A stretch of 64,000 bases of DNA from Amphiscolops sp. MND2022. Lineage: Eukaryota. A model generated the notes under the pieces. It did no database searches. It saw only the letters and a program-made list of their open reading frames with translations, and was not told the DNA's origin. The stretch lies in assembly GCA_964187785.1 (NCBI GenBank), contig OZ076409.1, positions 25,298,001 through 25,362,000 of the forward strand, read 5' to 3'. The position numbers and the translations under genes are program-made. Positions 4,359 to 20,585 of the stretch are shown piece after piece; within the stretch, counting starts at the first letter, position 1; every line of letters starts with the position of its first letter.

Positions 4359-5770
4359 CTGTAGTCTCGGTCCGAAAAAGGCGGAGTGACTACCCTTTTT
4401 CAGACCATGGCCAACAAACGCTTAGGACCTAGATCAGATTACCGTTTTCAGACCAGCTCTGTAAAAACCCTTTTTCAGACTTCTGCAATTTCTGAAAAAG
4501 GAGTCACTAGGAGTTTGAAAAAGGTGATTTAACCCTTTTCAGACTAACTAGGCCAAATATTGGAGACGGAATCTTACACCAATTCGCATCATCTTTATTT
4601 TCATCAGTATAGCTTTCATGTTTTGCAACGATAAGGGTTCGAATACTTGGTACAGTTTTATTGAATAGACGTACACTTGAATAACATTAAATGTTTGTTT
4701 TAGGCACTTTTGAGGAGGTGGAAAATTCAAGAATGCAGAATTCAAGGATGCAGAATTGACACCAGAGACTTTATGAATTTTGTTCATGAATTTCACAGAA
4801 AGTTTTATTGATTACCAAGTTCTTGAACCTTCCTGGGAGCTAATGATTTCTTTCTATAGATTTCTTGCTACTCTACATTGATATCGCCACTGTGTCAAAA
4901 AGAAAAAAAACTCTCAAAAGATTTGATTCAATAACTATTCAAACAGTTTCGAGAACTCTCAAAACAGTTTCGATTCAGTAATTCGAAGATTGGAGGAAGA
5001 AATAAAAGTACACAACATTAAAAACAAGTCACTCATCTGCCAACGTGCACTGATCAAAACAATCGTCAAACAATGTTATCACCAAAACAAGTAAACTATA
5101 AACATGTAAAACTTGTGAACTAATTACGGATCAATGAGGCCAAATGAATACAAAAAACATCATCGTCATTCAATAAACAAAAAAGAGAAGCCAATGACAG
5201 GAAATTTAATTGAAGAAAATCATAAACATTCTTACCAAATCTAATAATTGTAGCCCGAAAAACATGTGCTCTGAAGCATGTACGAGATTGTTTTTCACGA
5301 AACGACATCACAGGATCCGTCAAAAGAAAAACTTGTAGAGGAATTTTAATAACTGTAAGGAAAACACAGAATCGTTCAATACCCCAAAACATGACTTCCA
5401 AAACATGTACAGGAAATCAAATGACTTAAAATTCAAAGCATCAACTCGATGAGCAAGCCAAACCCAACCCCCTAATTTTTGGTTCCAGCCATGTATGAGA
5501 TGAAGATTTTGATTGTCAGCGGAGTTAAAATTCCAAAACGTGAAATCAATGACCCAAAATCAAAACATATTCTTTTGTAAATCCACTTTGAACTCGAATA
5601 GAGGTTTGTCATTGTCAATTTAAAGGCGTTTCAGTCATGTTGAATAAACACTTAGAAGATGGTTAAGAACCACAAATTAGGTCATGAGGGGTATATTTAT
5701 CATCATCATCAAAATATCATTTGATGAGTTCCATTCATACAAAGGGTGGTAGCTCGAAACGTCAAAGTAA

Positions 5771-8700
5771 TCAGAACATTTTATATCCACAATCCTTCCA
5801 TTCATACAGAACTTTCATTAAAAACTGTACTGTGGAGTATTTCAGGTTTTGTACTTTTTTTACGTCTTTGGTTAGTTCCACGAAGGTGCGTTTTTCTTTT
5901 CCTGTTTCTCGTCGGACAAACTCCGAAGCAACAATGGAGTATACCGCTGTGCTGTATTCATGTCGTTGAGGACGTGACCTTAAGAATTGCTCTACTAAGG
6001 TTTCGGAAGGGACACCGTCTTCAAATTTCTTCTCACTGCCGAAAGGAAGACAGACTTTAGATTTCGACTTCTGTTTGATGACGCGCCTCTTCTTGGAAGC
6101 AGGGTCCTCATTGTAACTTTCATCTGACTCGTCATCATCGACATCGTCATCATCAGCACATTCATCATCCTCGCTGACATCAGATTCATCTCTCATCTCT
6201 TGGTCCTTGCTGGCTGAATCGGCTTCGAAAATTTCATTCAAAGAATTTTTAATTGTAACTGCAAACTCTATATCGAGATCATTTTGTTTAATTGTAATGA
6301 CCCTGTCAACTGCATTAGAGGTGGTGCAAGCATCGTACTCCTTCTGTATCATTTCGTAGTGAGTTCTCGCTACGTTGCGAGAATGGCCAATGTGTCGATC
6401 GAGAGATCGTTCCATCTGGACATCTTCTAAGTTTTCAGCGAAAATAGTACAGAACGTTTTCCTCCAACGATTGGTGTTAATTGGTACAGGTAGTTTTAAA
6501 TGGCATTCGAGGTAACGATTCCACTTTCCCATTACATTTCTCCGAATGGGTTCGCCTTCTTTTTGATCTAACTGTAAAAACAACAGGCTCTGCTCAGCAA
6601 CACGCAAAGTGCACTTTATCCTCAAATATCGAATAAAGCAGAATAATTCTTTCTCTGATAGAGCCACACGGCGAACTCCTTCGCTTTTAAAGTTCTTGTT
6701 TGTGTTTCTGAAATCGTTTGTGACTTCATCGATGATGCTCCGGATTCCAGTCTTCTTTATGGCATTCAGTTTCTTTAACTGATGTTCATCAATAAGTTTA
6801 AATACAAATAAGTTACCTTTGACATGACGGATATTTTGCAGATATTCTTTGCGGATGTATAGCGCAGTAGAAATTCGGCACACGTTGCGGCACACAAGAA
6901 TAAAAATGAGGCAACATTGAAGATGCTTATACTGCCTTTCTTTATTCGTGTAGGTTTCGTTTTCAAACGCATCCAAAAGTTCATATAGATATTCGGTCAC
7001 TTTTTGGTAAACTTCGAGAACAGTTTCCTTAGAAGCCACTTGTCTCGATCCGACTTCCTTTGCTGTGGCCTTTCTGAAAGGCAATTCGGCACTGACCGAA
7101 GACTGGTATCGATTAAGTGATCTCTCGACTTGATCACATTTTAGGGCGAAAGTTTTGGAATGGGGATCGGAGGCTAAACGACAGAATTCGACGAAATCTT
7201 TTAATTCCCGACAAATCTGGCTTTTCGTCTGTCCTGCCTTTACATTCTGTTCTACTTTAAGTTTTGCAAAGTAGACGCTGACACTCTGAGCACTTGAAAA
7301 ACCTTCTGTGACAACAACAAAAAGTTTGATTTTTTTGAGCAAGTTTGATATTCGTTCATCGGCGTATCTTCGAGCTCCTTTTCCGTTGTCAAAATCAGCA
7401 TGTTTCTCTTCGCGCCATTGATTGATGATTCTCAAAAAATCAAGTTCCGCCGAAAATGATCTAACTTGCAATTCCAATTTCGAACGCTCTGTATTGTCCG
7501 GCTCTCCGAAGAAGAGGACACTTTCGGGTAAATCTTTCACTTTGGAGATAGGTTTAATGTAAGTCTTATGTCCCGAGATTGAATGTTTGTCGCGCCTATG
7601 GAACACAGCAAGACATCCTTCTTTACTACAGATGTACATGCATTTCCTCGTACCTCGGTTCTTCGCTTCAAAATAATGCATTTTGACTACAGCATTTAGG
7701 GCGGCTTTGCTTGAGTAGTTATGAATTCTTTTGAGATGCTTTGGAAGACACATGTGCGTTTTTAGTTCTGTCTTACAAAAATGGCAGCGCACAGAGTAAG
7801 GGGCTTTGCGAACGGTTGATGCTTCTCTATTCTTGTGCTCGTCAAGTTCGTTTCTATCTGAAGAGTCTTTTCGTGCCAGGTTCCTTACGACAGCTTTTAC
7901 AACGTTGTCATCAAAGCCCACACTTTGATAATTGCCCCGGTTGTCCCCTGTTTCTAATCTGGGTTGCTCTGAATGGATATCCTTCAAATGTCGCCGGATA
8001 TGTGTTTTCTCGCTGTCGAGAAAAATTGTTCTGCATCTGAAAAGAACAGATCGTTTTAAAAGGTGAAACTTCTAACCTTGACAAACCTAATGACTTCTTG
8101 CAGGAAATTACAAACTCACATTCATTTTTAGTTTTTCCACGATTATGTTATTTGTTTTTCAATGAGAGCATTTCTTGGTAAGATTTCAGAAACAAGTTAT
8201 AATTAATGGATATATATTTCAAATGCATATAATAATATTATATTACAGTCGAATCCGCCTAATTCGTATCGCTAGGGACCGAATAAAATACTACGAATAA
8301 CGAAAAATACGAATTAACACGATGATATTACTTTGGTCGTACGAATTAAACGAAGATCCGAATTATCCGGATACGAATTAACCGGAGTTGACTGTATTAT
8401 TCTTATACGTATAACATACATTTATATATATACTGAAAAAGTTTCCCGAATGATACTTTTGTAACACAGAATTTCATTGCAGTTTGTTCTATTATTGTCA
8501 CCTTCTTCTGACTTTCAACAAAAAACGCTTTTTTAAAAAAAACTCGATGATCTAATTGTTAATATAGGTTTTTTTCAGAAGTCAGAAAAAGGTGATAAAC
8601 ATGTAGCTAACATCATTGTTATATCATAAGTATCACATGAAAGAGTTTCGCATGAAGGTATCATAATCGAGGCGATCTTGAAAAAACACAGTTTGAAAAA

Positions 8701-19904: not shown

Positions 19905-20585
19905 ACGAGTTGAAGGAGTAGTTGTTATAAACTTGTTATGAACTTTTCTTTTCCTTTCTTGGTGCTCTTAAAGAATTCATCCTTTTCCTCCGTTCTATTG
20001 CTTTCTTATAATAATTATTATATAATCTTATTATATTTTATATTATAATATTTTATTATTTTACATAATTATTATATTATATAATATTACTTTTATATTC
20101 ATTTCAATTTAAAAAAGTTTTAACTTCCTTATTTCTTCTTGAAATTTAAGGACGCGAGTTTTGGTCAAGGACCGTTAATTTGAAAGATGAATGGTAACAT
20201 TTTTGAAATGAGTTTTTCGAAATTCAATAAATAACGTTAAATAAATAGCTTTAAAAAACGTAAAATCTTCCGTCAAATTGAAAGTTAAATAACAAATTTG
20301 AACGACTAAAATTGAAATTCATTTTACTAAGGTCCAAAACAGCAGGAATTCGCGTGACTAACATCAAAAAAGGTAATTTCCTTAATGAATAACCCAAATT
20401 TTTTCTACTCTGCTGAAATTATTTCAAAATGGTTCTTCAAATAATGACGGTAGTAAGCTAACAGAGGACAATTTAAAATTAATACTCAGTATTAAGCCCT
20501 TTTAAATTGGCACTTCGAGCAATAGAGACTTATTAAATTGGTATCAGAATACTAAATGACTACTTAAAATGTCCTCCATATCATG

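Follow-up and report, generated by a model that had tools for sequence, protein, structure and literature searches.

Transposons read chromatin, for example through chromodomain integrases, and are silenced by chromatin; whether one can also write it, with a histone-modifying enzyme fused to the very protein that integrates the element, is the question raised by a locus of Amphiscolops sp. MND2022 (assembly GCA_964187785.1, contig OZ076409.1). The window analyzed here, a stretch of 64,000 nucleotides (positions 25,298,001 to 25,362,000 of the forward strand), contains at 4359–20585 two elements that an original prediction had described as intact DNA transposons, each encoding a fusion of a SET histone-methyltransferase domain with a tyrosine recombinase (YR). 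The best explanation, and in our judgment a very probable one, is that both are complete, recently active members of one Crypton-like YR transposon superfamily, which integrates site- and orientation-specifically and has a putative built-in chromatin writer. In the full-text literature searched, neither a SET–YR transposon nor a transposon-encoded histone writer fused to an integration enzyme is described.

Element 1 occupies 4359–12097 on the minus strand (7739 bp), and element 2 occupies 12207–20584 on the plus strand (8378 bp). With microsatellite sequence masked, six 10-kb loci around element-1 copies (L011–L016, 86–99% identity) were aligned to the window, and in all six the alignment is limited to window positions 12097–4359; that of the element-2 copies L027 and L028 (99.6% identity) is limited to 12207–20584. 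Since the homology of the other copies stops at the element ends, the coordinates 4359–20585 first proposed for the two elements are exact. The recombinase open reading frame (ORF) of element 1 is present in seven full-length copies, including that of the window, at 98–100% identity on six chromosomes of the 1.07-Gb assembly, and the genome search found further diverged families at ~60% and 50–53% identity. For element 2, the last exon was matched by two additional copies at 99% and by more than 100 diverged relatives (121 matches listed of 904 first-look candidates). Probes made from the terminal 300 nt identified, genome wide, nine element-1 ends at 99% identity or above and three element-2 ends at 100%; related families contributed about twenty more ends, at 76–88%. 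Taken together, the counts of copies and ends point to many low-copy, young families.

Such a distribution could in principle also arise from a host gene family, that is, from domesticated recombinase or SET genes spread by segmental duplication. Low copy numbers would be compatible with this, as would the flanking matches shared by L013 and L014, which duplicated segments would show as well. However, the homology between copies ends exactly at the element ends, beyond which the flanks differ unless they consist of other repeats; copies at 98–100% identity are spread over at least eight chromosomes or contigs; and the element-free tails of a retrotransposon, described below, are empty sites. 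The chance that these are host genes is practically negligible, and the view that they are mobile, multi-copy and non-syntenic, is borne out.

Each element contains one predicted gene of three exons with GT–AG introns, free of stops and encoding 1099–1105 amino acids (aa) in element 1 and 1298 aa in element 2, as the original prediction had proposed. The order within the protein is the same in both, namely SET, disordered linker, C2H2 zinc fingers, YR, and a small C-terminal helical domain. In element 1 (minus strand), exon 1 (9563–10031, with alternative donors at 9557 and 9545) encodes a small N-terminal SET domain with the motifs FINDD..PN (9747–9761) and IRYDY (9636–9650); exon 2 (8743–9307), aligned with the relatives P0002–P0006, encodes a low-complexity linker and the first zinc finger; and exon 3 (5771–8036) encodes C2H2 fingers, the core-binding-like and catalytic domains of the YR, an acidic linker, and the C-terminal helical region. 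In element 2 (plus strand), exon 1 (14275–15809) encodes a repeat-rich N-terminal region and the N-terminal part of SET up to NHCCDPN (15778–15795), exon 2 (16254–17576) the KMT5B/C-type C-terminal part of SET, the post-SET CxCxxC motif, a linker, zinc fingers, and the N-terminal domain of the YR, and exon 3 (18866–19904) the YR catalytic domain, a disordered linker, and a C-terminal four-helix domain. The linkers of element 2 hold in-frame tandem repeats (195 nt twice and 111 nt three times within 14457–15143; 69 nt twice within 16435–16572) and are its fastest-evolving parts (proportion of nonsynonymous differences, pN, about 0.4). Neither a reverse transcriptase (RT), nor a DDE transposase, nor any other recognizable gene was found among the ORFs or by Pfam in either element, and no Pfam family is matched by exon 1 of element 2 or by any of seven small ORFs.

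Are SET and YR truly parts of one protein, or do the exons of two neighboring genes merely stand in line? The predicted junctions rebuild conserved motifs, as had been noticed at first: junction 2 of element 1 restores a C2H2 finger, junction 1 of element 2 restores the NH..PN motif of SET, and junction 2 of element 2 divides the codon of the first catalytic Arg between CG and A, giving a residue-for-residue match to the uninterrupted paralog L031. The fusion is genuine because three intronless paralogs, L030 (1153 aa), L031 (1056 aa), and L052 (1122 aa), join SET and YR within a single uninterrupted ORF. The three-exon coding sequence is intact in five of the seven element-1 copies examined (the window and L013–L016), L011 and L012 carrying frame-breaking indels. 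The small N-terminal SET of element 1 is also present in the relatives P0002, P0004, P0005, P0006, and P0014, down to 24% identity. Among 34 database relatives scanned, with short fragments omitted, SET was found in five, which amounts to five of the eight that are at least 1000 aa long. Three SET-bearing relatives are not encoded in this genome, where their best matches reach 70%, 33–36%, and 25%; the SET–YR architecture thus occurs in other genomes as well, and the proposed SET–YR lineage stands.

The recombinase itself is best seen in element 1, whose YR region was modeled with AF2 from 21 aligned sequences (predicted local distance difference test, pLDDT, 77). Compared by VIA-align, the model matches XerH with Z 12.0 and a root-mean-square deviation of 3.2 Å over 164 residues, archaeal XerA with Z 11.7, and Cre with Z of about 11 across 243 residues of its two domains; YRs or type IB topoisomerases make up 44 of the first 45 VIA-align rows, and the top Foldseek matches (XerH, Cre, Flp, Xer, and Tn1549 Int) are all YRs. 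The model supports a YR fold in the element 1 recombinase, preceded by a helical core-binding-like domain, and agrees with the fold claimed at the outset. The catalytic codons lie at 6875–6877 (Arg I), 6695–6697 (Lys), 6461–6463 (Arg II), 6383–6385 (His), and 6356–6358 (Tyr) on the minus strand in element 1, and at 18948–18950 (Lys), 19176–19178 (Arg II), 19260–19262 (His), and 19287–19289 (Tyr) on the plus strand in element 2. In the alignment of 21 sequences, K210, R288, H314, and Y323 are each conserved at 90% or above; in the clade of element 2, all 13 of the 13 paralogs keep HKTG, R104, H132, and Y141 unchanged, and Arg I is conserved at 90% or above. By hhalign, the recombinase profiles of the two elements align over 405 columns with a probability of 98.2% (E 4.6e-14) and with their motifs matched, and the putative assignment of element 2 to the YRs rests on this profile homology and on the motifs. 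Only 42 relatives are present among 1.84 billion representative proteins, the element-1 YR region has no match in the PDB by sequence, and a single-protein scan of viral contigs, which reaches close relatives only, confirmed none.

If the YR moves these elements, its substrates should be sought at their ends. Element 2 has a left terminal inverted repeat (TIR) at 12207–12227 (plus strand) and a right one at 20564–20584 (minus strand), which share the exact 13-mer GATATGGAGGACA (12209–12221 and 20570–20582); the alignment score of 19 between the two ends was reached by none of 500 shuffles. The original prediction had given each element its own TIRs, which holds for element 2 and is weak for element 1. 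At the 3′ end of element 1, the 12-nt motif CCTTTTTCAGAC (at most one mismatch) occurs in seven subterminal copies (4370–4544), and a single inverted copy lies at the 5′ end (12077–12088). The window holds 20 matches to this motif against 9.9 expected, a number that none of 100 shuffles reached, and the copies are candidate binding sites of the recombinase or of the zinc fingers. The termini are conserved across diverged families: the member of a 50% family in L015 resembles element 1 at the 5′ end, and the left end of L029, a 73% relative, resembles that of element 2. In addition, a third, direct copy (96%) of the left terminus of element 2 is located inside intron 1 (15898–15943, plus strand) and is kept in all three element-2 copies; at the corresponding position the intron of L029 is much shorter. 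It could serve as a recombination site within the element, or it could be what a nested insertion left behind.

The feature of the locus that says most about the mechanism was missed in the first reading and lies just outside the termini. Element 1 is flanked on its left by a (TAG)n microsatellite (4257–4358), the two elements are separated by (AGT)n (12098–12206), and element 2 is followed by perfect (GTA)n of 2451 bp (20585–23035), all on the plus strand and all representing one repeat on one strand. The same holds beyond the window, in that all well-resolved copies are bracketed by (GTA)n in direct orientation on both sides. At the loci where the repeat is present, it reads (TAC)n in the sense of the gene in 8 of 8 cases in the element-1 clade (11 loci examined), and (GTA)n in 8 of 8 in the element-2 clade (16 examined). 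This orientation, fixed within and opposite between the clades, explains why elements 1 and 2 face opposite ways. When element 2 is removed in silico, (GTA)n is rejoined in phase. The element-1 copy L012 stands outside any long repeat, in a minimal CTACTAC site and without a target-site duplication (TSD), with CTAC present in the 5′ flank and again inside the 3′ terminus. In L015, the 3′ end of the element and the 5′ end of another family are only 4 nt apart.

Where do such tracts come from? Immediately upstream of the (TAG)n tract at 4257–4358 lies a non-long-terminal-repeat retrotransposon (long interspersed nuclear element, LINE) encoding endonuclease and RT (1306–4256, plus strand; Pfam RVT_1 1e-29, Exo_endo_phos). 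This is a young and abundant LINE, 40 scored copies of the 3′ end matching at 98–100% identity; in 12 of 12 other copies examined this end runs into a (TAG)n tail of 18–315 nt and then into unrelated DNA. Judged by this comparison, the tract beside element 1 is the tail of the neighboring LINE. The unoccupied LINE tails are natural empty sites, of the kind that the original prediction had suggested looking for, and LINE tails are likely the main source of landing sites for SET–YR elements. Members of different SET–YR families also lie within a few kilobases of each other at C4:55.76 Mb, C5:13.23 and 13.60 Mb, and C8:38.51 Mb, which suggests arrays accumulating in shared microsatellite tracts.

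Two further observations concern the repeats. Long, near-perfect (GTA)n tracts of 0.7–2.45 kb adjoin the elements (window 20585–23035; L028 1–951; L052 8616–9998; L011 271–1001), compared with 18–315 nt in unoccupied LINE tails, and the elements or their recombinase may promote expansion of the repeat. Distant members are located near other simple repeats, with no (GTA)n in the stretch, namely (TAGA)n at 6728–6819 of L033 and (TTA)n at 7944–7991 of L054. Different families may target different microsatellites, it being noted that both SET presence and target repeats of the distant families rest on few loci.

These features can be brought together in a mechanism. The YR would bind the terminal inverted motifs, and the element would be excised or copied as a circle, whose joined ends would form a lox/FRT-like site consisting of two inverted binding sites that flank a short GTA-containing spacer. 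Strand exchange inside the GTA units of a genomic microsatellite would then lead to integration in one orientation. Both the circle and the strand-exchange steps are drawn by analogy from the Crypton model and from Cre/Flp sites. Strand exchange within GTA units would explain the direct repeats on either side, the orientation rule, and the pile-up of families in one tract. With Cre/loxP, Flp/FRT, and XerH/difH, the system shares the catalytic and core-binding fold (Z 11–12), the R-K-R-H-Y residues, and, in the joined-ends site proposed here, inverted motifs around a short asymmetric spacer; it differs from them in its proteins of ~1100–1300 aa with SET and zinc fingers, in the HxxR box, whose His is unconserved, and in a proposed spacer that is a microsatellite unit.

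A conventional alternative is that both are TIR transposons mobilized in trans by a DDE transposase from elsewhere, the SET–YR gene being captured cargo or a regulator. The TIR of element 2 is clear, and a 3-bp TSD would be hidden in a trinucleotide repeat; yet neither element has a DDE ORF, L012 lacks a TSD although it lies outside a long repeat, and the catalytic residues of the YR are kept under selection across families with different termini. Moreover, a fixed orientation relative to an asymmetric repeat fits site-specific recombination rather than cut-and-paste transposition. Mobilization in trans is, accordingly, regarded as highly improbable, and the YR remains in our reading the enzyme that integrates the elements.

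What, then, does the SET domain contribute? In element 1, SET is recognized by Pfam at E 1.6e-11 (45 bits against a cut-off of 22.4), and it scores 34–54 bits in paralogs and relatives; in element 2, it reaches 15 bits alone, below threshold, because an intron splits the domain. The motifs GxG, YxG, N(H)..PN, and E..Y of SET methyltransferases are present, with D for the motif His in the element-1 clade. The two clades differ in the solved structures that their SET domains resemble. The nearest to the small SET of element 1 are Set2/SETD2 (2e-8), KMT5A/SETD8 (3e-7), and MLL, with E from 1e-6 to 1e-8, and KMT5B/C is absent among the best 60 of 67 PDB matches. Within the element-2 clade, by contrast, 10 of 12 PDB matches of the L030 SET are KMT5B/C (SUV4-20H1/2) at 3e-18 to 5e-16, the next family following at 8e-4; the L054 SET matches KMT5B/C at 5e-12; and the piece of SET in element 2 exon 2 matches KMT5B at 3.5e-7, the next family scoring 0.15. 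The clade also keeps NH..PN, YYG, and the post-SET CxCxxC in register with KMT5B. By these similarities the SET of the element-2 clade is of the KMT5B/C type (Suv4-20, a family acting on lysine 20 of histone H4, H4K20), and that of the element-1 clade is of a small, KMT5A/Set2-like type. To KMT5B/KMT5C, the H4K20 di- and tri-methyltransferases, the likeness is specific for the SET core and post-SET region; the differences are that SET is here fused to a recombinase in a transposon and that the sequence preceding the SET core has diverged, a search with it finding no match. The type of SET is decoupled from the recombinase clade, as L031 combines a YR of the element-2 type with a small SET.

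The domain appears to be maintained. Four positions (N, N, E, and Y) are invariant in 8 of 8 aligned SET sequences. Between element 2 and L029, pN in SET is 0.21 against a proportion of synonymous differences (pS) of 0.67, giving a dN/dS (the ratio of nonsynonymous to synonymous substitution rates) of about 0.15; pN is 0.13–0.16 in the YR and 0.40–0.42 in the linkers, with synonymous sites saturated (pS 0.67–0.79). Judged by these ratios, SET is under purifying selection; within the element-1 copies, differences are too few for a dN/dS of SET. The presence of two SET subfamilies on one recombinase superfamily, together with purifying selection, argues that the writer matters to the life cycle of the element.

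As for the mark, the activity proposed for SET is methylation of a histone lysine, with H4K20 the best candidate, on nucleosomes of either the element or its target. Integration or maintenance would thereby be tied to a chromatin mark. H4K20 methylation has been linked to DNA repair, to silencing, and to genome stability and replication, according to the cited part of PMC3874154. That the recombinase carries its own H4K20-type methyltransferase, in two SET versions, to mark nucleosomes of the landing site or of the element is put forward tentatively, as a possibility that is at present less likely than not. If it is true, the H4K20me mark may bring readers that act in replication or repair to the recombination intermediate, or it may set up chromatin in which the element is hidden.

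The serious rival, especially for the clade of element 1, is a non-catalytic tethering role: SET would bind histone tails without enzymatic activity, or methylate a non-histone substrate such as the recombinase, and would guide the YR to chromatin without writing any mark. An Asp replaces the His of the NH motif in the element-1 clade and also in L031, and the small type is only weakly and non-specifically similar to solved families (1e-6 to 1e-8; Set2, KMT5A, MLL). Against this, the element-2 clade retains NH..PN, the Tyr of YYG, and the Cys cluster after SET, all of them aligned with those of KMT5B, the N, N, E, and Y residues are invariant in all eight aligned sequences, and the domain is under purifying selection, which would nevertheless fit a binding role too. 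On balance we consider this rival unlikely, and SET is read below as a putative writer.

A number of observations count against the reading of the two elements as active, site-specific SET–YR transposons with a chromatin writer. In the recombinase, the His of the HxxR box is unconserved in the alignments of both clades; the model of the element 2 catalytic domain is poor (pLDDT 60.6), with YR matches of only Z 4.0–4.4; the phage integrase family PF00589 is absent from the ORFs of the window and from 34 relatives, and is matched by one of 21 members at E 0.029; and DUF3504 (PF12012) is matched by 0 of 21 members at E ≤ 5. In SET, the Asp in place of the NH-motif His in the element-1 clade may impair catalysis. 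At the ends, the 11-nt inverted terminal motif of element 1, the one repeated subterminally, was reached by 40 of 500 shuffles and is not significant alone, and a junction of the right end of element 2 with its left end was not found in the genome, a weak test given three copies. As regards the target, (GTA)n is missing in the stretch for 8 of 16 loci of the element-2 clade and 3 of 11 of the element-1 clade, several of these being short stretches or distant families, and removal of element 1 shifts the phase of the repeat by one base. Finally, L013/L014, L021/L022, and L027/L028 may not be independent insertions but haplotigs or segments that were duplicated, and the splicing and single transcript of elements 1 and 2 are predictions from genomic sequence.

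How does the superfamily relate to known elements? One comparison for the protein is SETMAR, a single-copy primate host gene that arose from capture of a copy of mariner, a DDE transposon, and whose product likewise unites SET with an enzyme of transposition. In the elements described here, the fused gene belongs to the transposon itself, a YR stands in place of the DDE enzyme, and the fusion is ancient and shared across the family. The closest kind of element is the Crypton in a broad sense, as the original prediction had it, the YR being the sole mobility enzyme with neither RT nor DDE transposase. With Cryptons, including the active CryptonF-1_cRei, the elements share this reliance on a YR alone, the lack of RT, multiple copies, and introns in the gene. 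They also share direct repeats of end and target without a TSD, which here are (GTA)n in direct orientation on both sides and, in L012, CTAC. In the Crypton model (Goodwin 2003), as given in the cited parts of PMC3212892 and PMC9977147, a short sequence at the element end recombines with an identical target, producing no true TSD. Animal Cryptons, as characterized by Kojima and Jurka in 2011 in the cited part of PMC3212892, lack terminal repeats as well as a C-terminal domain, and match DUF3504. In contrast, the elements described here include a 19-nt TIR (element 2) and a C-terminal domain, show no DUF3504 match in 21 members, carry SET and C2H2 fingers fused to the YR, and use a microsatellite target in fixed orientation.

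Other YR-encoding entities can be compared as well. The YRs of endogenous nimaviruses integrate at telomeric (TAACC)n repeats or in 28S ribosomal DNA, and resemble those described here in being eukaryote-associated, in their C2H2 zinc-binding region and N-terminal SAM-like domain, and in insertion into simple tandem repeats, as far as the cited part of PMC10871703 describes them. They differ in belonging to giant viral genomes, in a pentanucleotide target, and in having no SET. DIRS, Ngaro, and VIPER elements encode a YR too, and terminal repeats in inverted orientation, as well as internal copies of terminal sequence, are found in some of them according to the cited part of PMC13465315; however, they encode RT and RNase H, and no RT is present in element 1 or 2.

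The family may be real and yet already cataloged in Repbase or Dfam, as a Crypton or an unclassified DNA element, with its SET domain noticed or not. Entries of Cryptons exist for many invertebrates (PMC3212892, in the part cited), and the nearest neighbors in the ESM-Atlas are unnamed eukaryotic clusters. On the other side, full-text literature on Crypton or tyrosine recombinase combined with SET, histone methyltransferase, or Suv4-20 returned two general reviews or nothing, all ten database clusters looked up (10 of 10) are without a name, and the 2026 list of Crypton accessory domains in the cited part of PMC13465315 includes DDE transposase, C48 peptidase, and helix-turn-helix (HTH) domains, with SET not among them. 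An earlier catalog entry is thus possible, although we are inclined to doubt it.

If the chromatin-writer reading is true, these would be the first mobile elements to join site-specific integration to a self-encoded histone writer. Independently of the mark, the orientation-specific use of a trinucleotide microsatellite offers a simple, testable target of a eukaryotic YR, and it connects LINE tails, microsatellite tracts, and DNA-transposon integration, which are usually studied apart. It may also account for kilobase-long (GTA)n tracts and for single-locus arrays of unrelated family members. In addition, a eukaryotic recombinase that is compact, has a repeat target, and acts on defined ends could be considered as a tool for site-specific integration.

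The remaining features are of lesser weight. The C-terminal domain of element 2 is modeled as a small four-helix bundle (pLDDT 80–91), whose best fold match (Z 5.4, common to HRDC, transposase HTH, and homeodomain) is at noise level; there is no Myb match in Pfam, and the Myb-like character first ascribed to this region is not upheld. A tRNA-like stretch in intron 1 of element 2 was considered and rejected, as ARAGORN found none, Rfam returned none at E ≤ 0.1, and only one other genomic relative exists. In intron 2 of element 1, a ~150-bp segment (8245–8395) has 31-nt inverted repeats at its bounds (8240–8270 and 8370–8400) and is missing in the copies L012–L014 and L016; it resembles a small insertion like a miniature inverted-repeat transposable element, which would mark a subfamily. 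Beyond the two elements, the window as a whole is rich in transposable elements, and its retroelements of the BEL/Pao type point to an animal. The window includes a BEL/Pao-type long-terminal-repeat retrotransposon at 26933–37061 with duplicated gag (DUF1759) and protease segments and an integrase (Integrase_H2C2, DUF5641), followed by a separate RT fragment at 40692–42633.

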